Source of the DNA: Gammaproteobacteria bacterium
GTDB lineage: Bacteria; Pseudomonadota; Gammaproteobacteria; JABABF01
DNA length: 64,000 nucleotides
Direction of reading: 5' to 3'
Assembly: GCA_965215045.1 (NCBI GenBank)
Contig: OZ244031.1
Coordinates: 1,386,626-1,450,625, forward strand
The notes below the pieces were generated by a model, which was not told the DNA's origin, searched no databases, and saw only the letters and a list, made by a program, of their open reading frames with translations. Made by a program: the position numbers and the translations under genes. Positions 5,066 to 63,738 of this stretch are shown here, one piece after another. Position 1 is the stretch's first letter, and every line of letters starts with the position of its first letter.

Positions 5066-5227
5066 CCGGGTTCTTGTTTTTTTATGCCGTGGAGGAATGC
5101 TTGCGATGAGTTGCGGGTTCTTGTTTTTTTGTGCCGTGGAGGAATGCTTGCGATGAGTCGCGGGTTCTTGTTTTTTTATGCCGTGGAGGAATGCTTGCGA
5201 TGAGTCGCGGGTTCTTGTTTTTTTCGC
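5066..5227 (+). repeat. Tandem direct repeat, ~47 bp x 3.4, duplicating the SD + start codon + first codons of the downstream MotA/ExbB-like gene
   Basis: Unit cgggttcttgtttttttatgccgtggaggaatgcttgcgatgagt repeated head-to-tail; copies differ at 1-2 positions. Confidence 0.85.
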
Positions 5228-6801: not shown

Positions 6802-8727
6802 TTGCGAGGCGCACATCGCCGCCGCTCGCCACCGCACCCGGGCCCCGTGAGACAGCGTCTGCCCGATTTCGCCGGCGTCGCGCTGGTCGATATCCTCGCC
6901 AACGGCGTCGGGATGCTGATTATCATCATTGTGCTCAGCATCTCCGCGCGCTTTGCCCAGGAGGAAAAGCAGTTGGAGCAGGTCGACGATGTCTCGGTGG
7001 TGTTGAGTCGCCAACTGGCGACTTCCATCGTGCTGAACACGCTGTCTGCCGCCCCGCCGGCGCGCCTGCACGATTACGAGAAGTCGCCGCTGGACCAGAA
7101 CCTGGATTTCCAGCGCATTCCCATCCTCGAACTGCACCGGGAATTCGTCCGTGATTATTACAGCGGCCGGGTCTTTTTACGCAAGGAATTGCTGCTGGAA
7201 CAAAATCGTCTCGACGAGTTTGTCGCCGCCTTCAGCCCGCTCCAGAAACGGGGTATCCGGGTGGACATCTATGATATTCGACAGTTTTACCTGGCGATGT
7301 CTATTCTGCGCACCCACGGCATCGACCCGCGGCACTGGCACTTTCTCAGCGGCGGTGGCATGGGCGTGCAGGATGCCGGTTTTTGTCCGGGCGGCACGCC
7401 GGGCAGCGAGTGTACCGGCATCGGCGGCGGTGCCGGTGCCGAGGTCCTGGCACAGCGGGACCTGGACCGGCTGTTTGCCGATGGTTCCGATGCCCGTGGG
7501 GAAGAGGAGGGCGATGCAGAGGACGGGGAGGGTTCCGGCACCGGGGGGGAAGGGCAGGAGGAGGCACCGGCCGTGGCGGCCGGGGGAGGGGCCGGGGGAG
7601 GCGAAGGAGAAGAGGGGGGCGAAGACGCAGAGGAGACCGGTGCCCAGTGGTTGCCCGGTGAATCGGACTTGTCAAACATCGCCCAGGGCTCGGCCGCAAG
7701 CCTGGTGCGGTTTCCCGCCAGCGGTGCCATTCCGCAGAGTGCAGATGCCCCGGGTGCCGGTAGCGCAGATTCGATGGCGGGCCAGCCATTGGACAGTTCC
7801 CACCAGGACCTGATGCAGAGCATCGGCAGAAGCAGTACCTTGCAGGACAACGGCCAGGGCAGTGCAGTGCGCCCGCAAAAGGCGCGCTTTCGCCGGGCGG
7901 TGCCGGAAGAGAATGAGCGGCAGCGAAACCGGAGGAATAACGGCTCCCCCGGCGAGCAGACCCGCAGGCTCGACACACTGCCGCCCCTGCGTGATATCCT
8001 GGCGATCCTGCTGGGCTACATGCGCGAAGTGCAGGAACTGCTGGACCGGGGTCAGTCCCCGCTGCCCTTGTTGCAGGGTTTCAGCGACAGCATGGAGGAG
8101 CAGTTGCAGAACCCGCCGCCCGTGCGCGCCGCAGACGAGGAGCTGATTCTCCCCCTGGTCGAACATTTCATCGCCTACTGGCCCGATGATTCGGCACCGG
8201 ACGTTCGACAGGAATTGCGCCCGCAATTGTCTTCGGCGGCACTGATTTTGCCACCCAATACCGGGGTGGAGGAACTGGTACTGGGCGGGAACGAGTACCA
8301 GGAAAAACTGCCGGAGCTGCCGTCACCCAAGCCGGTGCGGGTGCGTATCAACCTGTATCCCAGCGTGTTTCGCGGGCTGTTGCAGAACCTGGAACTTCAC
8401 AGCGTACTGCTGATGCCCCCCGAACAGCAGGACCCGGGACAGTTCCGCTGGCGGGCGGTAACCTACATTTCACCGGCCTTTGATGATTATGTCTTCGGCT
8501 TTGTCTACGCGGCCCTGGATGCGGACGGCGAACTTCTGGTGCAGGCCGATGCCAACCGCGTGCAGGTGGGTCAGCACTTCACCCGTACCGTCGCCCCTCC
8601 CAGGGAGTTTGACGTGCGCGACTGGATGACGCTCTTCTATGCGCTGCTGGTCGGCGCCCTGCTGTTGTTCCTGGTGCCGGCACTCGCCTACTGGTGGCGG
8701 GTGCGCCGTCCCGTGCCGGCGCACTGA
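6802..8727 (+). CDS. Large membrane protein with ExbD/TolR-like N-terminal anchor, acidic Gly/Glu-rich disordered linker, globular C-terminal domain and C-terminal TM helix
   Basis: TTG start (alternative GTG ~6847). N-terminal TM VALVDILANGVGMLIIIIVLSI is ExbD-like; residues ~200-290 are GGGxGEGEEGGED low-complexity; ends with TM WMTLFYALLVGALLLFLVPALAYWW. Confidence 0.5.
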   Translation: MRGAHRRRSPPHPGPVRQRLPDFAGVALVDILANGVGMLIIIIVLSISARFAQEEKQLEQVDDVSVVLSRQLATSIVLNTLSAAPPARLHDYEKSPLDQNLDFQRIPILELHREFVRDYYSGRVFLRKELLLEQNRLDEFVAAFSPLQKRGIRVDIYDIRQFYLAMSILRTHGIDPRHWHFLSGGGMGVQDAGFCPGGTPGSECTGIGGGAGAEVLAQRDLDRLFADGSDARGEEEGDAEDGEGSGTGGEGQEEAPAVAAGGGAGGGEGEEGGEDAEETGAQWLPGESDLSNIAQGSAASLVRFPASGAIPQSADAPGAGSADSMAGQPLDSSHQDLMQSIGRSSTLQDNGQGSAVRPQKARFRRAVPEENERQRNRRNNGSPGEQTRRLDTLPPLRDILAILLGYMREVQELLDRGQSPLPLLQGFSDSMEEQLQNPPPVRAADEELILPLVEHFIAYWPDDSAPDVRQELRPQLSSAALILPPNTGVEELVLGGNEYQEKLPELPSPKPVRVRINLYPSVFRGLLQNLELHSVLLMPPEQQDPGQFRWRAVTYISPAFDDYVFGFVYAALDADGELLVQADANRVQVGQHFTRTVAPPREFDVRDWMTLFYALLVGALLLFLVPALAYWWRVRRPVPAH

Positions 8728-8730
8728 GCG

Positions 8731-10326
8731 ATGCGCGGACAAATCCCCGTCCTGTCGCTGGTGCTGCTGCTGGTGCTGCTGCTGGCACTGGCGGCGGTCA
8801 CCCGTCTGCGCCTGCCCTCTGCCCAACTCGGCACGGTGCCGGTTCTCATGGAGGCGAGTGCTGCGTCGAGTGCCCGGGGACGCGCGGTCGATGCGCTGCT
8901 GTTGCCGCACCTGGCAGAGCTGGGCCGTGACCCGCAACTGGCCGGGGCACTGGATGCGCCGCAAAAAATGGTCGAACTGCGCGGTTTCTGGGTCGATGCC
9001 TGCGAGGTGCGCCAGGGGGATTACGAGCGCTTCCTGTTGTGGTTGGAAAAAAATCCGCGGCGCCTCCCATCACTGGCCGCGCCGGGACAACCCTACAATT
9101 GGCGCTATGACACGAGTTCCCGCGGGCACCGCCTGGCCGGACGCCTGCAGTCGCCGGCCAGCGGCGTCAGTTATTTCGACGCCTACGCGTACTGCCGCGC
9201 CGCGCGCGGGCGTCTGCCCTTCAGCGAGGAGTGGCAGGCCTTGGCCGGCGGCGAGGAGGGGCGGCTCTACCCCTGGGGAGATGATTTTCGCCAATCCCCC
9301 TGGCCCTACCTGGAAGCCGATCTCAACGCCTCGCAACTGTGTGGCCTGCACCCGGATACCAGCACCCCGGAAGGCGTGCACGACCTGGCGGGCGGGGTCA
9401 TGGAATGGACGCAGGGACAGCGTATCCAGGCACCGCAGGAGAGACGGGCCGCACTGCACGGGGCACCGCCCGAGCGCAAGCCGCCCCAGGGTGTGCACGC
9501 ACTGAACGTGGTACAGCGTCCGATGACGCCCAGGCACCGCAGCCATCATGTCGGTTTCCGTTGCATTTACAACAATCGGCCCAGGCGCCAGCTGCCCTGG
9601 GGAGTGCGCCCGAAGCGGGTGCGCATCCCCGGCGGGCGCTACCGCACCGGTATGCCGCCGGATGCGCGACTGCCCAGGCTCGCCGCCCTGTTGCCGCCGG
9701 AGCGGCTGGGCAAGCTCGCCGCCCTGCTCCAGGGGGGCGAGCGCAAAGCGCGCACCATCCGCTTCGGCCGCTGCGAGGTCAGTCGTGCCCATTACCGCGT
9801 GTTCCTGGGCGACCCGATGGTGCGCCTGGGCCTGTTCGGTAACGAGAACGAGCCCCCGGACGTGAATTACACGCCCCTGGATTGGACCCAGCAGCAACGG
9901 CAGCCGGCACTGCCGGTGACAGGCGTGGATTGGTGGTCGGCGGACGCTTTTGCGCGCTGGGCCGGCGGCCGGCTGCCCAGTGCCGACGAATGGGATATTG
10001 CCGCCGCCGGTCCCGGGGCCACACGCTACCCGTGGGGAGATGAATACGACCCGGAGCGGGCGATGACCGGCGACCTGCCGCAGGCGACCCCGGCGGCCTG
10101 CGGCATCCGGGAACAAGACCTGAGTGCCGCCGGTCTGCACGACCTGGCGGGCAATGTCTCGGAGTGGACCCGCAGCATCACGGTGGAAAAACGGGGTTAC
10201 GCCATGCTGGTCAAGGGGGGCAGCTACCTGTTGCCGGGTGAGGCCAGCGCGCGCAACGGCTTTGCCCGGGCGGCACCGCTGAATCATCGCACGGCAGATA
10301 TCGGTTTTCGCGTTGTGTTTGATTGA
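8731..10326 (+). CDS. Secreted/membrane-anchored protein with two formylglycine-generating-enzyme (FGE/SUMF1, DUF323) domains
   Basis: N-terminal signal/TM (VLSLVLLLVLLLALAAV); two copies of the FGE-sulfatase fold signature (GFRxV..., xxDxAxAYCxWAGxRLPxxxEW, HDLxGNVxEWT, LVKGGSY). Confidence 0.65.
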   Translation: MRGQIPVLSLVLLLVLLLALAAVTRLRLPSAQLGTVPVLMEASAASSARGRAVDALLLPHLAELGRDPQLAGALDAPQKMVELRGFWVDACEVRQGDYERFLLWLEKNPRRLPSLAAPGQPYNWRYDTSSRGHRLAGRLQSPASGVSYFDAYAYCRAARGRLPFSEEWQALAGGEEGRLYPWGDDFRQSPWPYLEADLNASQLCGLHPDTSTPEGVHDLAGGVMEWTQGQRIQAPQERRAALHGAPPERKPPQGVHALNVVQRPMTPRHRSHHVGFRCIYNNRPRRQLPWGVRPKRVRIPGGRYRTGMPPDARLPRLAALLPPERLGKLAALLQGGERKARTIRFGRCEVSRAHYRVFLGDPMVRLGLFGNENEPPDVNYTPLDWTQQQRQPALPVTGVDWWSADAFARWAGGRLPSADEWDIAAAGPGATRYPWGDEYDPERAMTGDLPQATPAACGIREQDLSAAGLHDLAGNVSEWTRSITVEKRGYAMLVKGGSYLLPGEASARNGFARAAPLNHRTADIGFRVVFD

Positions 10327-10455
10327 GAGGGGCCGGGCGGCGGCCACCGGTTTTGGCCTTGTGTTTGATTGAGAGGGGCCGGGCGGCGGCCACCGGTTTT
10401 GGCCTTGTGTTGGACTGGGCGGGGGCGCGCAGCGGCCACCGGTTTTGGCCTTGTG
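10310..10455 (+). repeat. Tandem direct repeat ~46 bp x 3 spanning the stop codon of the FGE gene
   Basis: ttgtgtttgattgagaggggccgggcggcggccaccggttttggcc x2 plus a diverged third copy; abuts the 3' end of tRNA-Leu. Confidence 0.85.
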
Positions 10456-10477
10456 TTCACCCCGGCGGCTCCGGGCC

Positions 10478-23309: not shown

Positions 23310-23365
23310 TCCCTTGGGTCAGAACTCTGATGAGTTATTTTTATCATAGCACAGCCCGCACGCAG

Positions 23366-23524
23366 CCCCGCATTCGCCGGGTGGTATCGGGCCGGGGAGC
23401 GGGTCTGGGGCCTGGGTGGTGCTGTCGGGGAGCGGGTCTGGGGCCTGGGTGGTGCTGTCGGGGGAGCGGGTCTGGGGCTTGGGTGGCACCCCGCATTCGC
23501 GGGATGGTATCGGGCCGGGGAGCA
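23366..23524 (+). repeat. Composite repeat: 33-bp unit x3 bracketed by a 32-bp direct repeat
   Basis: ccccgcattcgccgggtggtatcgggccgggg [gggagcgggtctggggcctgggtggtgctgtcg]x3 ccccgcattcgcgggatggtatcgggccgggg. Confidence 0.8.
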
Positions 23525-23605: not shown

Positions 23606-23680
23606 GGGTGGTTAGCTCAGCGGGAGAGCATCTGCTTTACAAGCAGAAGGTCGGCGGTTCAATCCCGTCACCACCCACCA
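23606..23680 (+). tRNA. tRNA-Val (anticodon TAC)
   Basis: GGGTGGTTAGCTCAGCGGGAGAGCATCTGCTTTACAAGCAGAAGGTCGGCGGTTCAATCCCGTCACCACCCACCA, near-identical in architecture to E. coli tRNA-Val(UAC). Confidence 0.85.
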
Positions 23681-23692
23681 CCAGGCAACTGC

Positions 23693-23769
23693 GGACCGGT
23701 AGTTCAGTTGGTTAGAATGCCGGCCTGTCACGCCGGAGGTCGCGGGTTCGAGTCCCGTCCGGTCCGCCA
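23693..23769 (+). tRNA. tRNA-Asp (anticodon GTC)
   Basis: GGACCGGTAGTTCAGTTGGTTAGAATGCCGGCCTGTCACGCCGGAGGTCGCGGGTTCGAGTCCCGTCCGGTCCGCCA. Confidence 0.85.
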
Positions 23770-23787
23770 GTTTTCCCGGATATTCGT

Positions 23788-24642
23788 ATGGCATCTATCT
23801 TTAAAACCATCGGTTTGCTGGGTCGTGAAGACAATTCCCGGGTGATGGAAACCCTGGCCAGCACCCGCGATTTCCTGGAACAACGCGGGGTGGAGGTCTT
23901 CAGTGCCCCGGATGCGAAAACCCTGCTGGCACAGCACTCCTGCGACCTGGTGGTGGTGGTCGGCGGCGACGGCAGCCTGCTGGGGGCCTCCCGCACCCTG
24001 GCGCGGCGCGGCGTGCCGGTGCTGGGTGTCAACCGCGGACGCTTCGGGTTTTTGACCGACCTGCTGCCCAAGAAGATGAGCGCATTGTTCAGCGAAATCC
24101 TGGAAGGCAATTACTCCGTCGAAAAGCGTTTTCTGCTGGGTGCTGAACTGGTGCGTGACGGCAAGAAACAAGGTGCCGGCGATGCCTTGAATGACGTGGT
24201 CGTCAGTTCCGGTGCCTCGGCACAGATGGTGGAGTTTGAGTTGCATATCAACGACAGTTTTGTCTACAGTCAACGTTCCGATGGCATCATCATTTCCACG
24301 CCGACCGGCTCCACTGCCTATTCCCTGTCCGCCGGCGGTCCGATCATGCATCCCCAGTTGAACGCGGTGCTGCTGGTGCCGATGTTCCCGCACACCCTGA
24401 GCGGTCGTCCGCTGATCGTGCACGGCGACAGCGAGTTGCGCATCGTGGTCGGTGAACACAACGAGTTGAAGCCGCAGCTGTTCTGCGACGGACAGGTGGA
24501 GTTGAATGTCATCGCCGGTGACGAGGTCCGAGTGAAAAAAAAGAAAAAGACCCTGCACCTGATCCATCCGCAAAACCAGGATTTTTACGCTTCCTGCCGT
24601 GACAAGCTGGGCTGGGGCAAACGACCGGACGAACAGGGCTGA
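23788..24642 (+). CDS. nadK: NAD kinase
   Basis: GGDGSLLGASRTLARRGVPVLGVNRGRFGFLTD and NDVV..TPTGSTAYSLSAGGP motifs. Confidence 0.85.
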   Translation: MASIFKTIGLLGREDNSRVMETLASTRDFLEQRGVEVFSAPDAKTLLAQHSCDLVVVVGGDGSLLGASRTLARRGVPVLGVNRGRFGFLTDLLPKKMSALFSEILEGNYSVEKRFLLGAELVRDGKKQGAGDALNDVVVSSGASAQMVEFELHINDSFVYSQRSDGIIISTPTGSTAYSLSAGGPIMHPQLNAVLLVPMFPHTLSGRPLIVHGDSELRIVVGEHNELKPQLFCDGQVELNVIAGDEVRVKKKKKTLHLIHPQNQDFYASCRDKLGWGKRPDEQG

Positions 24643-24647
24643 GCGCA

Positions 24648-25424
24648 ATGCGAAGGCAGAAGAAAAAAAACAATGAGGCGGCGAGGGCATCCCCCCCCCC
24701 CCCCCCCCCCGATCCGAGAGTCGACAGGGGGCATTCCCCGCCACCGATCAAACTGCGGCGGATTCCCGCTGAATTGATCGCCGTGTCTTCCGAGTTCCCC
24801 TGGAAAAAAATACTGCGCCGTTTCCCGGTCTGCGCCCTGTTTTTTGCGCTCTGCCTGGTCGGTGCCCTGCTGGTGCGGATGGCACAGGAATACCCGTTAT
24901 GGATTGCGCCGTGGACTTTTCCCGGCTATGCAGACCCCGTGCTTGGCCTGGCGGTGGATTTCCGGCAATTCTGGCGCCTGCTGACGCCGGCTTTTTTGCA
25001 TTTTGGCATCGCCCATCTCGCATTCAACCTGCTGGGCCTGTGGATCTTCGGTGCTCCCATCGAGGGCGGACGCGGCAGCCTGCGTTTTGCGCTGCTGCTG
25101 GTCGTCAGTGCGGTGTGCAGTCACCTGGCGCAATTCCAGGCCACGGCGGCGACCAATTTCGGCGGGCTGTCCGGTGCCGTGTATGGCCTGGTCGGCTACC
25201 TGCTGATCTGGAACCTGGGCAATGCGCACCGGGGTTTGATCGTGCATTACCCGCTGTTGGGCCTGATGCTGGTCTGGATGCTACTGGGCTTTAGCGGTTT
25301 GCTCGACCTGTTGCTGGGAATACGCATGGCGAACTTCGCCCACCTGGGCGGTTTTCTCGCCGGCGTCGCACTGGCCTTCCTGGACCGTTTCACCGATTAC
25401 CTGTCCCCACGGTTTGCGCGGTGA
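24648..25424 (+). CDS. Rhomboid-family intramembrane serine protease
   Basis: Catalytic GGLSGAVYGL (GxSG) and AHLGGFLAGV (His) motifs within 6 predicted TMs. The true start may lie downstream of the poly-C tract (e.g. GTG in ..ELIAVSSEF..). Confidence 0.65.
   Translation: MRRQKKKNNEAARASPPPPPPDPRVDRGHSPPPIKLRRIPAELIAVSSEFPWKKILRRFPVCALFFALCLVGALLVRMAQEYPLWIAPWTFPGYADPVLGLAVDFRQFWRLLTPAFLHFGIAHLAFNLLGLWIFGAPIEGGRGSLRFALLLVVSAVCSHLAQFQATAATNFGGLSGAVYGLVGYLLIWNLGNAHRGLIVHYPLLGLMLVWMLLGFSGLLDLLLGIRMANFAHLGGFLAGVALAFLDRFTDYLSPRFAR
24691..24710 (+). repeat. Homopolymeric C20 tract
   Basis: 20 consecutive cytosines; read in the 24648 frame they encode SPPPPPP. Confidence 0.9.
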
Positions 25425-26272
25425 ATCTTCTGGGCACAGACCGCCTGCGCAAGATGGAGGCGGAATACACCGACGCCGAAGTGCGTTATTTCCTGTCGCT
25501 GGATACGCGGCGGGTAGCACTGGAAACCTTGCTGGGATGCGCCTTGCGCTTGCGCCATACCGGCGCAATTTTCTGCATCGCCTGCGGCAGAAAAACCTCC
25601 CGCAGTTTTAACCAGGGCTACTGTTTTCCCTGCTTTCGCCGGCTCGCCCGCTGTGATCTCTGCGTCGTGCGTCCCGATCGCTGTCATTATCACCTGGGCA
25701 CCTGCCGGGAACCGGAATGGGGCGATGCACACTGCATGATCCCGCACTGCGTCTATCTCGCCAACACCTCGGGTCTCAAGGTCGGCCTGACACGGCGCAA
25801 CCGGGGGCCGATGCGCTGGATCGACCAGGGAGCGGTGCAGGCACTGCCGGTTATCGAGACCGACACCCGCCAGCAGGCCGGTTTCGTGGAAGTCTTGTTC
25901 AGCGAGTACGGCATTTCCGATCGCACCAACTGGCGTCGCATGCTGGCACAGCAGCCGCCCGAGCTCGATTTGCCCGCCGAGCGGGACGTTTTGTTGGCAC
26001 GGCTCATGCCGGACGTCGAAGCCCTGTGTGAACGCTTCGGCAGTGGCAGCATCCGCGCCCTGGACCGGGAGCAGACGCTGGAATTTGACTATCCCGTGCA
26101 GCATTATCCGCGCAAGGTGCGGAGCCTGAACCCGGGCAAGAAACCCGTGATCGAGGGGCGCCTGCTGGGCGTCAAGGGACAATATCTGATCCTGGATGTC
26201 GGGGTGTTGAACGTGGCCAGCTATGCCGGCTACGAGATGGAATGGAGTGCTGCGGATCAGGTGGGCTTGTAA
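25421..26272 (+). CDS. Cys-rich DUF2797-like hypothetical protein
   Basis: GTG start overlapping the rhomboid stop; conserved cysteine cluster CIACGRKT...YCFPCF...CDLCVVRPDRC typical of the DUF2797 family. Confidence 0.45.
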   Translation: MNLLGTDRLRKMEAEYTDAEVRYFLSLDTRRVALETLLGCALRLRHTGAIFCIACGRKTSRSFNQGYCFPCFRRLARCDLCVVRPDRCHYHLGTCREPEWGDAHCMIPHCVYLANTSGLKVGLTRRNRGPMRWIDQGAVQALPVIETDTRQQAGFVEVLFSEYGISDRTNWRRMLAQQPPELDLPAERDVLLARLMPDVEALCERFGSGSIRALDREQTLEFDYPVQHYPRKVRSLNPGKKPVIEGRLLGVKGQYLILDVGVLNVASYAGYEMEWSAADQVGL

Positions 26273-28098
26273 AGGGGGGGCAGGGACGCATTCCGCCGCT
26301 GAAACAGCCTGAAGCGCTTGCGCCCGGGTGCCGGCGCCCGGTGCAATGCGCGCAGTGCGGCATGCAGTCGCTCGCTTTCCCAGTCGTGAATCTCCTCCTG
26401 GTACAGACGCTGGTTCATTTCTTCCAGGGCTTGTTCCAGGTCCGGCGTCTCTGCCCGTCGGCATAGTTCGCGCAGGGTGTGCGGGGGGTTTTCGCTCCAG
26501 CGCCGGCGTCCCCAGACTAAAAGTGCATCGCGCAACTCGCGCGGGTCGCGGCGTCGGCAGGCGGCCAGGGCGTGCTCCAGGGCCTTGCGCTCCGAGTGCA
26601 GTGCCTCCAGGTGCGCCTGCTGTTGCCGTTGCCGGGCCCGCGCGTGTGTCCGATGCTCGCGCCACCAGAGCGCGGTTGACAGGAACCAGAGACCGGCCAG
26701 TGCCAGCATCAGTCCCAGCCAGGGCAGCGACGGCAGCCGGGGTCTTGCTGCGGCATCCGGTACCGGTGTTGCATCCAGTGCCAGGCGATCCACTTCACCG
26801 GCGGCGGTAATGATGCTGCTGACGCCGCCTTCCCCGGTCTGCAGCGCGGCACCCCGGGCCGGGACGACCTCCAGGCTGCGCGCCGGGAGTACCGCGGTTT
26901 GCAGTCGCTCCTCCTTCAGGTCCCACCAGGGAATGCGAATTTCCGGCAATTCAATTTTGCCCGGGCGGGTGGGAATCAGCACCACGGTGTCTTCCCGCAC
27001 GCCGATCATGCCCCGGTCTTTTTTGCGACTCTTGAAGCGCGGTTTTTCCGGGTAGATTTTCGCCCCCGGAATCTCGGCCAACGGCGGTGCCGGCAGTTGT
27101 TCGCCCAACAGGTATTCCGCCTCCATCTTGATTTTTCTCGTAATGGGCTGTCCGACTTCCAGGCCCGAGGCCAAGGTCTCACTCCATTGTTCCTGCAGGT
27201 TGAACTTTTCCGCCGGCAGCCAGATGCCGCCGGGCAGCCCTGCGGGAATCGGCAGCACCGTGACTTGCAGGGACTTGTTCCTGATCTGGATTCTCCTGCG
27301 GTTATCCGCGCGCCGGGCATTCAGCCGGGCGGAGGGAATTTTCAAGGCACCGCTCTGCTGCGGGAAAATCGCGTATTTCCACTCGTAGACCGTGTAACGC
27401 CGGCCTTCCCGTGTCCGGTGATAGTTGCGTTCGGCGATCTTGCGTACCGGGATGCTCTTGTTGAACGCCGGCTCCGTGACCCTGCCGGAAATATTAACCG
27501 CGGTGAACACCTGCACGGTATGAATCAACTGCGCCTGCACCGGCACGGTTTCCCGGTCCACCTTGCCCTCCATGAAGACATCGGGCAGCGATTTTGCCGG
27601 TGGTTTCGGCTTGGGAGCGGGCCGGGCGGCGGGGCGCTGCGCTTTCTTGGCCGGTTGCGCCGGCTGTTGCGCCGTCTGTTGCGTCGTCTGTTGCGTCGGC
27701 TGCGCCGCCGCGGGCTCGCGCACCGTGACCCGTAACGGGGCAGTGCTTTTGCCGTCGACCCTGAGCCCGGGAATCTGCAGAACGCCGCTGCGCCGGGGTT
27801 CCAGCCGGTAGCGCCAACTGCGTTGCGCCCGGCGAACGCCGTTCTGGTAGAACTGCCGGGTAGACAATGCCTGCGACAACACCTGGAAATTCCGCTCCAG
27901 CGGGCGGATATCCGGCGTCCCGGCGGGCAGGGTGTCGCCGATACTCTGCACCAGCAATTCCACGTTCTGGCGCAGTTCCAGCGTGTTGCGGTCGACGCTG
28001 GCCTGGAGTTCAAACGCCGCTTGGGCCCGCAGTGCCGGCAGCAGCCCCAACAGCAGTGCCAACAGCAGCCCCCACAGCGGGGGAAAATACCGTCGCAT
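26257..28098 (-). CDS. batD: BatD-family aerotolerance-operon protein
   Basis: Start set at MRRYFPPLWGLLLALLLG signal peptide (ATG overlaps batBC stop as ATGA); large secreted protein with C-terminal TM. Last gene of the moxR-DUF58-batABCD operon. Confidence 0.65.
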   Translation of the reverse strand: MRRYFPPLWGLLLALLLGLLPALRAQAAFELQASVDRNTLELRQNVELLVQSIGDTLPAGTPDIRPLERNFQVLSQALSTRQFYQNGVRRAQRSWRYRLEPRRSGVLQIPGLRVDGKSTAPLRVTVREPAAAQPTQQTTQQTAQQPAQPAKKAQRPAARPAPKPKPPAKSLPDVFMEGKVDRETVPVQAQLIHTVQVFTAVNISGRVTEPAFNKSIPVRKIAERNYHRTREGRRYTVYEWKYAIFPQQSGALKIPSARLNARRADNRRRIQIRNKSLQVTVLPIPAGLPGGIWLPAEKFNLQEQWSETLASGLEVGQPITRKIKMEAEYLLGEQLPAPPLAEIPGAKIYPEKPRFKSRKKDRGMIGVREDTVVLIPTRPGKIELPEIRIPWWDLKEERLQTAVLPARSLEVVPARGAALQTGEGGVSSIITAAGEVDRLALDATPVPDAAARPRLPSLPWLGLMLALAGLWFLSTALWWREHRTHARARQRQQQAHLEALHSERKALEHALAACRRRDPRELRDALLVWGRRRWSENPPHTLRELCRRAETPDLEQALEEMNQRLYQEEIHDWESERLHAALRALHRAPAPGRKRFRLFQRRNASLPPLYKPT

Positions 28099-28099
28099 C

Positions 28100-29968
28100 T
28101 CAGAGCCCCGGGTCATTCTTGTTCGCCCGCGACTCTCCCTGCTGCTCCCGGAGCCGGTGCTGGTAGAGCAGCTTGTTGCCCAGCAGGCCCGCGGGATTTT
28201 CCGAGACGCGCCGCAGCCAGATCTCGGTGGTGTGCTCCTGTTCCCCGGCGGGTGACAGGCTGCCCATGTCTTCCAGCAGGCTGCTGAGGTCGCGGTTGTC
28301 CGGTTCGTTCTGCTCTCCCTCCTGTTCCCCGTCCTCTGCGCTCTCCGCTTGCTCATCGCCGCGCCGGGCCATCTCCTGTCGTGCTTTTTCCCGGGCATCC
28401 CCGCCCTGTTCCCGCGCCATCTGCTCCAGGAACCGCCGCTCCTGCTCCTGCTCGCCCGCCGCGGCTTCGGACGCCTGTTCACCTTCCTGTTCCCCGGACT
28501 GCGCCTGCTGCTGCCGCTCCCCGGGACCTTGTTCACCCCGCTGTCCTTCTCCGGACTGCTGCTCGCCCGCCTCACCCGGCTGTTGCTGACCGGACTGTTG
28601 TGAAGCCTGTTCCAGGGCGGCGAGTAACAGCTCCAGGTTGTGCTGCGCATCTTCCAGTTCCGGGTCGATTTCCAGCGCGGTGCGGTACGCCTTGATCGCT
28701 TCCATGATGCGCCCGGCATGCGCCAGGGCATTGCCGCGATTGTAATGATGCACGGCGTTGTCTTCCACGTTCCAGGATTGCATCGCCCGTTCGTACTCCC
28801 CGGTGCGATACAGGGCGACGCCGCGCCAGGTCGGGTGGGCAAACAGTTCCGCCGCCCGCGCGGAGTCGCCTTCCTCCAGCGCGCGTGTCGCCTGCTGGTC
28901 CCGGTTCAACCACAGGCCCTGCCAATCGAAGGCCCTGGCCGGTGTCGCGACGCCCAGTGCGACAAACAGGCCCAGCAGCAGCAGCCAGCCGCGCCGAAAA
29001 CCGATGGCGGCCAGGGGCAGGAGCACCAGCAACAGCCAGGGTCCTTCCTCCCGCCACAGGTCGAATCGCCTCTCGGTCTCCCGCGTCTGCTCGTAGTGCA
29101 GGAAACTTTCATCCATGAGGTAATCGATGTCGCTGTCGTCGATCGACAGGGAATGATAACGACCGCCGTTTTGCGCGGCCAGTCGTCGCAGCGGGGCGGG
29201 GTCGAAGGCGGCGATCACCGGGGCACCGCCGCTGTCGCGCAAAAAGCCGCCCGCCGGCAGCGGCACCGGGGCACCGTTGCGGGTGCCGACGCCCAGGATT
29301 AGCAGCGGCAGCTCTTCGTCCTCCAGGATGCGTGTCAGCTGCTGGGCCTCGCGGGTGCGAATGCCGTCGGTGATGAACAGCAAGCGGCCTTGCAGACGCT
29401 GGCCGCCGCTGTTTTCCAGCAGTTGCAGGGCGTCTGCGACGGCGGCGGCGGCGTTGCTGCCCTGTACCGGCAACAGCTTGGGCGACAGGGAGCGCAGCAG
29501 GTTGCCGATCGCCTCGGTGTCGTCGGTCAGCGGGGTGATGGTGAAGGAGTCGCCGCCGTAGGCGACCAGCGCCGTCAATCCCTCCCGGCGCCGCTGCAGG
29601 ATGTCATTGACCTTGTTGTGCACCCGCTCCATGCGCGACGGCAGGATGTCCTGGGCGTACATGGAGGGACTGAGGTCCAGCATCAGCACCAGTGCATCGG
29701 CGCGCTGCTCCGTCGGCTGCTGCAGTTTCTGCCAGCTGGGGCCGGCCAGGGCCAGGATCGTCAGCAGCCAGGCGCACAGCAGCAGCACCAGCGGCAGACG
29801 ATTGCCGCCCTGGCGTTGCAGCAGGTGTTCGCGCAACTCGGCGCCCATGAAACGCTCCCATTCCGGTGCGTCCTTGCGGTGCGTCCAGCACAGCCAGCTG
29901 AGAAACAGCATCGGCAGCAACGCCAGGAACCATAGCGGTCGGACAAAATGCAGGGCGGAGAACTCCAC
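28100..29968 (-). CDS. BatB/BatC fusion: VWA domain + TPR repeats with acidic Q/E-rich tail
   Basis: N-terminal TMs, VWA MIDAS region (ALVLMLDLSPSM..), TPR repeats (YNRGNALAHAGRIMEAIKAYRTALEIDP), then low-complexity SGQQQPGEAGEQQSGEGQRGEQG tail. Confidence 0.7.
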   Translation of the reverse strand: MEFSALHFVRPLWFLALLPMLFLSWLCWTHRKDAPEWERFMGAELREHLLQRQGGNRLPLVLLLCAWLLTILALAGPSWQKLQQPTEQRADALVLMLDLSPSMYAQDILPSRMERVHNKVNDILQRRREGLTALVAYGGDSFTITPLTDDTEAIGNLLRSLSPKLLPVQGSNAAAAVADALQLLENSGGQRLQGRLLFITDGIRTREAQQLTRILEDEELPLLILGVGTRNGAPVPLPAGGFLRDSGGAPVIAAFDPAPLRRLAAQNGGRYHSLSIDDSDIDYLMDESFLHYEQTRETERRFDLWREEGPWLLLVLLPLAAIGFRRGWLLLLGLFVALGVATPARAFDWQGLWLNRDQQATRALEEGDSARAAELFAHPTWRGVALYRTGEYERAMQSWNVEDNAVHHYNRGNALAHAGRIMEAIKAYRTALEIDPELEDAQHNLELLLAALEQASQQSGQQQPGEAGEQQSGEGQRGEQGPGERQQQAQSGEQEGEQASEAAAGEQEQERRFLEQMAREQGGDAREKARQEMARRGDEQAESAEDGEQEGEQNEPDNRDLSSLLEDMGSLSPAGEQEHTTEIWLRRVSENPAGLLGNKLLYQHRLREQQGESRANKNDPGL

Positions 29969-35485: not shown

Positions 35486-36762
35486 AACAGCAGCTGCAGC
35501 CCCTGTTCCGCATGCTGCGGGAACTGCTGCTGTTTTGTATCGCCGGTCTTTTGCCGGGGGCACTGCTGGGCGTCCCGCTGCAGGGATTGGGCGTCGGCGT
35601 CGGCACCTGGCTGCTCTGGAACCTGGTCCAACCGCTGCGCCTCTGGCAGTGGTTGCAGCGGGAGACGACGAGCCCGCCGCCCAGGAGCCTGGGTCTGTGG
35701 CAGTCGATCTTCACAAGCCTGGGTCGCCGCCAGGCCGAGCAGGCCGCCTCGGCGGAAGCGGTGGCACCTTTGCGCGAGTTATTCCAGAATTTCAACAGCG
35801 CGGTGATCCTGCTGGATGCCGACGGACGCATCGCCTGGTGCAACCAGGCTGCGACCTCGCTGCTGGGAGTGCGCTTTCCCGAAGACCGACGCCGTCACCT
35901 GGGCAACCTGCTGCGCACCCCGGAACTGTTGCATTTCCTGCAGCAGATGCCAGAGCAGACACCGCTGGAATGCGCATCGCCCGGCGATGCCTCGCGACAC
36001 CTGCGTTTCGGCTGTGCGCGCCTGCCGGAGGGCAGGGGTATTGTCTTTGTCCAGGATATTACCCAGCCGCACCGGCTGGAGAAGATGCGCCGGGACTTTA
36101 TTGCCAATGTCTCGCACGAATTGCGCACCCCGCTGACCGTGATCATCGGCAGCCTGGAACTCATGGACGAGCCGCTGCCGCCTGCCAAGCTGCGTGAAAT
36201 GCAGGAAGACATGCGCCACCAGGCCGGGCGCATGTCAGACCTGGTGCAAAGCCTGTTGCGCCTGGCGCAGCTCGAGAGTATGACCGAGCCCGCCGCCCGC
36301 GAACACATCCCACTGCGCCTGCTGCTGGCAGAAGTCTGTGACAGTATGAAAGCCAAGGCAGGTGAAGGGCGGCGCCTGGAATCGCACTGTCCGGATGCGC
36401 TGGTACTGCTGGGTTCCCGGGGCGAGTTGCAGAGCGTTTTCCTCAACCTGCTGGACAACGCCGTGCGCCACACCGACGCCCGGGAAGGCGTGGTGCAGGT
36501 AGAGGCCGAAGGCAGTGCCGAAGGTATCCGCGTGAAGGTGAAGGATAACGGTGCCGGCATCGAACGCCGACACCTGCCCCGGTTGACCGAGCGTTTTTAT
36601 CGCGTCGACGAAGGCCGGAATTCCGCCCAGGCGGGCACCGGCCTGGGACTGGCCATCGTCAAGCACGCCCTGGAACGACACCAGGGCGAGTTGCAAATTC
36701 ACAGCCGACCGGGGGAGGGCAGCGAGTTCGTGTGCTGCTTCCCGCCGGAGCGCAGCGGCTGA
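35482..36762 (+). CDS. phoR: Phosphate regulon sensor histidine kinase PhoR
   Basis: N-terminal TMs, PAS, H-box VSHELRTPLT, ATPase G-boxes (DNGAGI...GTGLGLAIV). Confidence 0.8.
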   Translation: MKQQLQPLFRMLRELLLFCIAGLLPGALLGVPLQGLGVGVGTWLLWNLVQPLRLWQWLQRETTSPPPRSLGLWQSIFTSLGRRQAEQAASAEAVAPLRELFQNFNSAVILLDADGRIAWCNQAATSLLGVRFPEDRRRHLGNLLRTPELLHFLQQMPEQTPLECASPGDASRHLRFGCARLPEGRGIVFVQDITQPHRLEKMRRDFIANVSHELRTPLTVIIGSLELMDEPLPPAKLREMQEDMRHQAGRMSDLVQSLLRLAQLESMTEPAAREHIPLRLLLAEVCDSMKAKAGEGRRLESHCPDALVLLGSRGELQSVFLNLLDNAVRHTDAREGVVQVEAEGSAEGIRVKVKDNGAGIERRHLPRLTERFYRVDEGRNSAQAGTGLGLAIVKHALERHQGELQIHSRPGEGSEFVCCFPPERSG

Positions 36763-36960
36763 ACCCCTCCCGCACATCGTCTGAACTCCTCCCGCACATC
36801 GCCGGGCCCCCTCCCAAACATCGCCTGACCCCTTCCCGCATAGCACCTGAACTCCTCCCGCGCACCGCCTGAACTCCTCCCGCGCATCGTTTGGCCTCCT
36901 CCCGCACATCGTCTGAACCCTTCCCGCACAGCACCTGAACTCCTCCCGCACAGCACCAGT
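36763..36960 (+). repeat. Array of ~9 degenerate 22-bp direct repeats (CTGAACTCCTCCCGCACATCGT-like) with no spacers
   Basis: Units begin immediately after the phoR stop and continue contiguously; they differ at 2-5 positions each. Confidence 0.8.
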
Positions 36961-63363: not shown

Positions 63364-63738
63364 TTTTGCCGGTGCTTGCGCGCCGGCTTTTTGTTACACG
63401 GGCTTGCGTTGCGGTTTGCGCTGTCGCCGCACACCGCTTGGCCTGCGTTTCTTGCGCTTGGCCCTGGGGTGCGAGCGATCGTAGTATCTTTTGCCGGTGC
63501 TTGCGCGCCGGCTTTTTGTTACACGGGCTTGCGTTGCGGTTTGCGCTGTCGCCGCACACCGCTTGGCCTGCGTTTCTTGCGCTTGGCCCTGGGGTGCGAG
63601 CGATCGTAGTATCTTTTGCCGGTGCTTGCGCGCCGGCTTTTTGTTACACGGGCTTGCGTTGCGGTTTGCGCTGTCGCCGCACACCGCTTGGCCTGCGTTT
63701 CTTGCGCTTGGCCCTGGGGTGCGAGCGATCGTAGCTCT
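63364..63738 (+). repeat. Tandem direct repeat 125 bp x 3 at the 3' end of xerC
   Basis: ttttgccggtgcttgcgcgccggctttttgttacacgggcttgcgttgcggtttgcgctgtcgccgcacaccgcttggcctgcgtttcttgcgcttggccctggggtgcgagcgatcgtagtatc repeated three times (last copy ...gtagctc). Confidence 0.9.

Follow-up and report, generated by a model that had tools for sequence, protein, structure and literature searches.

Phase variation through homopolymers in 5' coding regions is described (PMC5084427; PMC10330708) for the pilC and lgt genes of Neisseria, for poly-G loci of Campylobacter and for the poly-C tract of mga in group A Streptococcus. Here we analyse an uninterrupted run of 20 cytosines (C20) located between nadK and the conserved part of a rhomboid protease gene in a 64,000-nt stretch of contig OZ244031.1 (assembly GCA_965215045.1, positions 1,386,626 to 1,450,625), which we call the window and whose own numbering is used throughout. 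Like the loci just mentioned, this is a long G/C run placed shortly after an ATG, where a gain or loss of one nucleotide shifts the frame to early stops. However, it stands upstream of the probable start of the conserved protein, with in-frame restart codons at the off-frame stops, it is longer than usual at 20 nt, and the gene concerned is an operon-embedded rhomboid of a free-living-type marine bacterium. Judged from its sequence context, the tract probably either has a modulating role or is a hypermutable leader of neutral effect, and is not the classic on/off switch suggested by a preliminary description of the locus.

Poly-C tracts can also act as promoter spacers, as in the fim2/fim3 switches of Bordetella and in opc of Neisseria, a gene mentioned in PMC3447861. 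The tract of the window resembles these switches, which bring about a graded modulation of expression level, in being a poly-C tract of 10-15 nt or more upstream of a gene. It differs from them in that no -35/-10-like hexamers surround it (a scan of 24300-25000 on both strands, based on the sigma-70 consensus only, returned 0 promoter-like sites), and in that it sits inside an operon, past a stop codon.

A third point of comparison is translational coupling by termination-reinitiation at overlapping or adjacent stop and start codons (PMC6728339; PMC10666635). The nadK/rhomboid junctions of relatives, at -19 to +4 nt (GTGA, TTGA, TAA-A-TTG), look like those of coupled pairs, as does the spacing of +5 between the nadK stop and the ATG at 24648, whereas the coupling predicted in the window would be relayed through a bridging open reading frame (ORF) of 41-43 codons that carries the hypermutable tract. 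We know of no description of coupling relayed in this way. Finally, poly-A runs of the endosymbiont Buchnera are tolerated through transcriptional slippage, according to work cited in PMC2831843. In both cases a long homopolymer stands in a reading frame, tolerated in Buchnera since heterogeneous mRNAs still give some in-frame product; the differences are that the run here is poly-C, in a genome of 63% G+C, where that of Buchnera is poly-A in a reduced, AT-rich genome, and that slippage is what we infer in the present case.

The argument rests on the following features:

24691-24710, plus strand: uninterrupted C20 homopolymer (read as G20 on the minus strand, where there is no credible gene)
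23788-24642, plus strand: nadK (NAD kinase, 284 aa), with its TGA stop at 24640-24642
24648-25424, plus strand: longest rhomboid ORF, 258 aa from ATG 24648
24774-25424, plus strand: putative conserved short-type rhomboid protease, 216 aa from TTG 24774 or 213 aa from GTG 24783
24638-24642, plus strand: left copy of a GCTGA direct repeat, 5 nt, containing the nadK stop
24643-24772, plus strand: putative lineage-specific insertion, 130 nt, whose 3' end is the right GCTGA copy (24768-24772)
24663-24670, plus strand: A8 run in the insertion, coding for KKK in the long ORF
25421-26272, plus strand: DUF2797 gene, third of the nadK-rhomboid-DUF2797 cluster, whose GTG start overlaps the rhomboid stop (GTGA)

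The tract begins 48 nt past the nadK stop, and not 6 nt past it as initially described (it is the ATG at 24648 that lies 5 nt past); its length of 20 nt, its position inside the longest rhomboid ORF and its translation as PPPPPP, in the context S-PPPPPP-D, had been read correctly. In the window, whose G+C content is 63.3%, the longest other runs are 6 nt for C, 7 nt for G and 8 nt for A or T, so that no homopolymer above 8 nt exists other than C20. By our own arithmetic (C = 0.31), about 3e-6 runs of at least 20 C would be expected in the window by chance; with this expectation and a next-longest C run of 6, C20 is the sole extreme outlier. G/C homopolymers of about 8-9 nt or more are generally slippage-prone, and C20 exceeds that length, in agreement with what the preliminary description had said of its propensity to slip.

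Two A8 runs had been placed within 70 nt of the tract. Only the one at 24663-24670 is that close; the other (24535-24542) sits inside nadK, 149 nt upstream, where it codes for KKKKK and the relatives have KK. Three of the eight A runs of at least 7 nt in the window cluster within 276 nt (24535-24810), namely the A8 of nadK, the A8 of the insertion and an A7 at the 5' end of the rhomboid gene (Poisson p ~7e-6), which suggests a locally raised homopolymer expansion around the tract. Moreover, the sequence GGGCAT(T)CCCC flanks the tract on both sides (24685-24694 and 24729-24739), with one more copy in the 64 kb, at 28393. This hints at a short C4-type seed as the origin of the C run; alternatively, the flanking copies may be the remnant of an internal duplication. 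On the strand opposite nadK there are antisense ORFs that overlap it (23728-24744 and others), and these are treated as spurious.

The length of 20 is that of one presumably long-read assembly, the only complete one of the locus, and long-read consensus is unreliable on homopolymer length, all of which would fit an artefact of assembly or sequencing, with a tract that is nonexistent or much shorter. However, short-read contigs of a second strain stop or start precisely at the tract. These contigs (L003, ERZ21849000; L004 and L005, GCA_964348175.1) match the window at 99.1-99.9% identity and have single-nucleotide polymorphisms in common among them; L003 and L004 both code for the same NadK protein, and L005 for the same DUF2797 protein. 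By their sequences, they are one independent population, separate from the window's assembly. L004 terminates at 24657. L003 tracks the window through 24688 and then runs into 85 nt of junk of 99% G+C, which holds CG16, the reverse complement of 24695-24711 (tract plus flank), i.e. at least 16 C/G. L005 opens at 24705 with CCCCCC, followed by downstream sequence identical to that of the window. We estimate at about 2% the chance that a contig of 2-3 kb breaks inside these 50 nt. Since the second-strain contigs all break at the tract, two strains at least have a long C tract in their DNA, and the artefact that had been considered at the outset is barely credible.

The position of the tract can be understood by comparing the nadK/rhomboid junction with that of relatives. 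nadK, a short rhomboid and the DUF2797 gene are syntenic in the three closest relatives, and the adjacency of nadK and the rhomboid is kept in all five relatives examined, where the distance from the nadK stop to the rhomboid start is -19 (L001), -4 (L002, GTGA), -4 (L006, TTGA), +4 (L007) and +1 nt (L008, TAA-A-TTG). In the window, the GCTGA that contains the nadK stop recurs at 24768-24772, where it is followed by A and TTG 24774, and removal of the 130 nt from 24643 to 24772 restores GGCTGA-A-TTG-ATC, which is a junction of the L008 type. The chance of finding GCTGA within the last 25 nt of the shuffled spacer is 0.017. Because the deletion of these 130 nt restores a junction typical of the family, C20 appears to lie in a lineage-specific insertion, and we conclude with moderate confidence that this insertion split an ancestral junction between the nadK stop and the rhomboid start.

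The insertion contains the C20 tract, the A8 run and two ATGs. It was considered as a repeated or mobile element, and this was rejected, since it is single-copy in the 64-kb window and inverted repeats at its ends were not seen by eye. Neither at gathering scores nor at E <=1 does it match an Rfam family, and the RNA fold of 24620-24800 is not significant (z = -1.15). Our scan found no terminator-like site between nadK and the rhomboid; with neither a promoter-like nor a terminator-like site between them, the two genes are consistent with co-transcription. The tract being downstream of the nadK stop, NadK itself is unchanged by it, and the altered read-through from nadK that had been envisaged does not apply; the alignment of NadK with its relatives reaches its C-terminal end.

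We compared the N-terminus of the rhomboid with those of its 120 best-matching relatives, among which are 33 other short-type rhomboids. The exact 258-aa protein is found in a single record; its nearest relatives share 44-49% identity with it and have lengths of 204-211 aa, and their first residues align with columns 38-46 of the long ORF. No counterpart of the 45-residue extension is present in any of the 120, nor does any of them have a Pro run longer than 2. In the 33 short-type rhomboids, 28-75 residues (mode 62) precede the WRxxTP motif, against 108 in the long ORF, 66 if translation begins at TTG 24774 and 63 if it begins at GTG 24783, so that either of these two starts would give an N-terminus of family-typical length. 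The extension also differs from the rest of the gene in its codons: its codon-usage log-likelihood is -0.08, the 5th percentile of real in-frame windows (mean 0.40), compared with 0.43 for the core, and 5 of the 7 Arg residues in it are encoded by AGG, AGA or CGA, three codons that together account for 10.6% of the Arg codons of window genes (binomial p=2.3e-4).

On this evidence, the conserved rhomboid most likely begins at TTG 24774 or GTG 24783, which would put the tract in a leader, outside the conserved protein, and the poly-proline N-terminus of the rhomboid is doubtful. Taken alone, this anatomical part, in which the tract is real and the insert that contains it is specific to the lineage and precedes the conserved start, is one in which we have good confidence.

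The initiation and termination codons relevant to the fate of ribosomes crossing the insertion are:

24648-24650, plus strand: ATG 5 nt past the nadK stop, opening both the bridging ORF and the 258-aa form
24673-24675, plus strand: second upstream ATG, in a different frame from ATG 24648
24770-24777, plus strand: TGA-A-TTG-A, with a frame 2 stop at 24770-24772, TTG at 24774-24776 and a frame 1 stop at 24775-24777 (TTGA overlap)
24783-24785, plus strand: GTG alternative start, in frame with the rhomboid, giving 213 aa

With a tract length of 2 mod 3 (17, 20, 23), ATG 24648 fuses to the rhomboid and ATG 24673 stops early. With 0 mod 3 (18, 21), it is ATG 24648 that stops early and ATG 24673 that fuses, giving MRRRGH-Pn, and with 1 mod 3 (19, 22) both stop early. 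A change of one nucleotide does uncouple ATG 24648 from the rhomboid frame, as had been predicted; TTG 24774 and GTG 24783 stay in frame whatever the tract length. The off-frame ORFs from ATG 24648 end after 41-43 codons, either at TGA 24770-24772, 1 nt upstream of TTG 24774, or at TGA 24775-24777, which overlaps it (-4). Because both off-frames stop within 1-4 nt of the TTG, frameshifted ribosomes would reach a restart codon and meet no dead end. The simplest reading of the off-frame stops around the TTG is that they stem from duplication of the ancestral junction.

For termination-reinitiation, the stop and the next start have to lie some -8 to +10 nt apart, and at more than about 20 nt hardly any of it is left (PMC10666635). 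By this distance rule, the gap of 131 nt between the nadK stop and TTG 24774 calls for either a bridging ORF or independent initiation. The spacings from the nadK stop to ATG 24648 (+5) and from TGA 24770 to the TTG (+1), the TTGA overlap (-4) and the GTGA overlap of the rhomboid and DUF2797 genes all fall within the working range, and translational coupling across these junctions is predicted from their spacing.

These observations can be brought together in the following way. The 130-nt insertion flanked by GCTGA would have split the ancestral GGCTGA-A-TTG junction, and ribosomes ending nadK may now resume at ATG 24648 and read across the tract, whose length, set by slippage of DNA and possibly of the transcript, would decide the outcome. 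In-frame ribosomes would continue and make a rhomboid with a basic, proline-rich tail of 45 residues, whereas off-frame ribosomes would stop at TGA 24770 or TGA 24775 and reinitiate at the TTG to make the short protein typical of the family. The tract would in this manner alter the N-terminal form or the amount of the protease and would never switch it off; the same scheme also allows for a tract that is largely a tolerated by-product of the insertion. Taken as a whole (insertion, tract in a leader, relay translation, modulating role), we put this account forward tentatively, as quite possible but a shade short of probable.

Several points weigh against it. The 5-nt repeat and the placement of the stops were noticed post hoc, which is why the insertion is held at moderate confidence, and a p of about 0.02 is only suggestive. 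The Shine-Dalgarno energies of the four candidate starts (-3.1, -4.6, -5.0 and +0.4 kcal/mol, for a random mean of -3.3) are convincing at none of them, and they neither favour nor rule out any. ATG 24648, at +5, fits the family junction too, and the long ORF could be real and its protein the only product. The spacer has zero substitutions between the two strains, an identity that is uninformative on selection, and the 20 nt of the assembly may not be the true length. Lastly, the slippage is our inference, as are the two restarts (ATG 24648 and TTG 24774) and whatever consequence there may be for expression.

A more elaborate version of the relay, which we consider quite improbable, would make it a selected three-state switch, with the tail MRRQKKKNNEAARAS-Pn produced from ATG 24648, the tail MRRRGH-Pn produced from ATG 24673, or the short family-type protein, depending on the length class of the tract. 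If true, this would amount to a stochastic variation in both the N-terminal isoform and the dosage of an intramembrane protease that is never fully OFF.

The same frame relationships bear on the reading of the locus as a classic contingency locus, where ATG 24648 would be the sole functional start, the poly-Pro tail would be part of the protein, and slippage of one nucleotide in either direction would toggle expression OFF and ON. The C20 is indeed in frame in the assembly, ATG 24648 keeps the closeness to the nadK stop that is typical of the family, stops end off-frame reading, and homopolymers are enriched at gene 5' ends in some species (PMC2831843; PMC3315296). However, the starts of relatives fall downstream of the position of the tract, the codon usage of the extension is atypical, in-frame TTG and GTG codons are found immediately at the off-frame stops, and ATG 24673 would rescue the length class 0 mod 3, all of which makes an OFF state of the rhomboid doubtful as far as the sequence goes. 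Moreover, contingency loci usually concern surface or restriction-modification genes, unlike this housekeeping-type gene of an operon; in the 64-kb window there is no set of tracts in surface or host-interaction genes, and the gene affected is an inner-membrane protease in the nadK operon. The literature searched yielded no link of rhomboids with phase variation, nor any work joining rhomboid, phase variation and homopolymer, and no tract-length polymorphism was observed in public assemblies. We regard this alternative as improbable. The preliminary description, which had seen in the locus a classic phase-variation architecture, is thus not borne out: relatives, N-terminal length, codon usage and junction all place the probable start downstream of the tract, with restart codons at the off-frame stops. 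Comparison of orthologous loci, which it had proposed as a check, found the 45-residue extension in 0 of 120 relatives and junctions of -19 to +4 nt in five.

It is also possible, if rather unlikely, that the insertion is a neutral hypermutable spacer, untranslated and with no regulatory role, the long ORF being a chance result of the tract length in the assembly and the rhomboid initiating independently at the TTG or GTG. The lack of conservation of the extension and its unusual codons agree with this, as do the missing RNA structure, RNA family and promoter signal in the insertion. In addition, there is no other long homopolymer in the 64 kb, and hence no sign of a genome-wide contingency strategy, and variable intergenic repeats abound in the genome. 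However, the presence of an ATG 5 nt past the nadK stop that remains open in frame over 45 codons would then be a coincidence (about 1%, a rough estimate), and the TTG and GTG would have to function with no Shine-Dalgarno sequence, at 131-140 nt from the nadK stop and so beyond the reach of direct coupling (PMC10666635).

The relay account was further compared with regulation by the leader itself. Poly(C) is a classic activator of Rho, PPP and PPD are strong stall motifs, and proline-codon leaders are known from the mgtA and mgtCBR genes of Salmonella, which such a system would resemble. In a leader-type attenuator of this sort, the C tract would be a Rho-loading site, or a Pro-stall site made of six Pro codons and dependent on EF-P, that gates the rhomboid and DUF2797 genes. 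The 78 nt starting at 24691 do contain 40 C for 18 G. However, once 14 C are subtracted the spacer has C = G = 38, which is unlike an evolved rut region, and the stretch at the tract is not the C-richest of the 64-kb window; in addition, the leader is not conserved and a hypermutable frame would be a poor sensor. We consider attenuation very unlikely. A Rho rut site, which would call for some 70-80 nt of unstructured RNA rich in C and poor in G, was rejected as an evolved feature, the C-richness being confined to the tract.

We searched public sequence data for variants of the tract. Ten predicted products (the short forms from TTG and GTG and the long forms for C14-C26) had no exact match among 15 billion proteins. 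A pattern of the flanks with a variable gap gave 0 matches in genome contigs, and both flanks together gave 0 in metagenome contigs; a protein-based search for the locus in GTDB genomes retrieved no confirmed relative. As none of the ten predicted products is on record, public assemblies are uninformative on variants of the tract length.

If the length of the tract varies and changes the form or the amount of the rhomboid, the protease would be the first of the intramembrane type to show phase variation, and if the relay operates as proposed, the locus would exemplify a hypermutable repeat lodged inside a translational relay, one that cannot be shut off completely. As it stands, the locus appears to be a well-anchored curiosity of an uncultured organism. 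There are also more general lessons: calling a gene by its longest ORF over a homopolymer can create a spurious poly-proline N-terminus, long homopolymer tracts fragment short-read metagenome-assembled genomes, and an insertion can be dated and delimited by comparing junctions with those of distant relatives.

The identities initially given to the two genes were confirmed, nadK matching the NCBIfam NAD kinase (E=1e-111) and its neighbour the Rhomboid domain (E=4e-28). The latter domain (Pfam PF01694, E=3.9e-28) spans residues 106-245 of the 258-aa ORF. In the numbering of the long ORF, the protein has the catalytic serine of the GxSG motif at S175, the TM6 histidine at H232 and the TM2 HxxxN motif at H123..N127, and G172, G173, S175, G176, H232, H123 and N127 are all invariant in the alignment with relatives. 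The N-terminal domains PF16733 and PF12122 were not found in it by family search. Its sequence has the features expected of a short-type rhomboid intramembrane serine protease devoid of the NRho domain.

The citrate synthase of the source organism shares no more than 75% identity with any sequence on record, its best named matches (71-73% identity) being relatives of Halieaceae, Endozoicomonas and Spongiibacter; the organism is an undescribed, uncultured marine gammaproteobacterium.

Directly 5' of nadK, and 18 nt from its ATG, lie the genes for tRNA-Val(TAC) and tRNA-Asp(GTC) (23606-23769); nadK may be transcribed together with these genes or just after them. Further upstream, between an aroD-like gene and tRNA-Val (23362-23524), the window has a segment of 124 nt that L003 and L004 lack. 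It comprises a 33-bp tandem repeat in 2.8 copies (23393-23486) plus a duplicated flank of 39 nt, and the difference is either a strain-level variable-number tandem repeat or indel, or a repeat collapsed by short-read assembly.

Other intergenic tandem repeats of the window are located at 5067-5224 (47 bp x3.4, with a T7 run per unit), at 10302-10476 (46 bp x3.4, beside tRNA-Leu), at 36759-36952 (22 bp x8.8, just after a PhoR-like kinase gene) and at 63364-63734 (125 bp x3.0, 100% identity). An ORF of 641 aa at 6802-8727, with coding-like GC3 and no Pfam family, stands directly upstream of a gene for an FGE-sulfatase-domain protein (8731-10326).

Finally, the comparison with L005 shows that strain differences are unevenly distributed downstream of nadK. 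The rhomboid and DUF2797 genes carry one synonymous change each, and 24 of the 26 strain differences fall in a BatD-like gene (26257-27727, minus strand), of which 14 are non-synonymous, a pattern that points to relaxed or diversifying selection on this gene.

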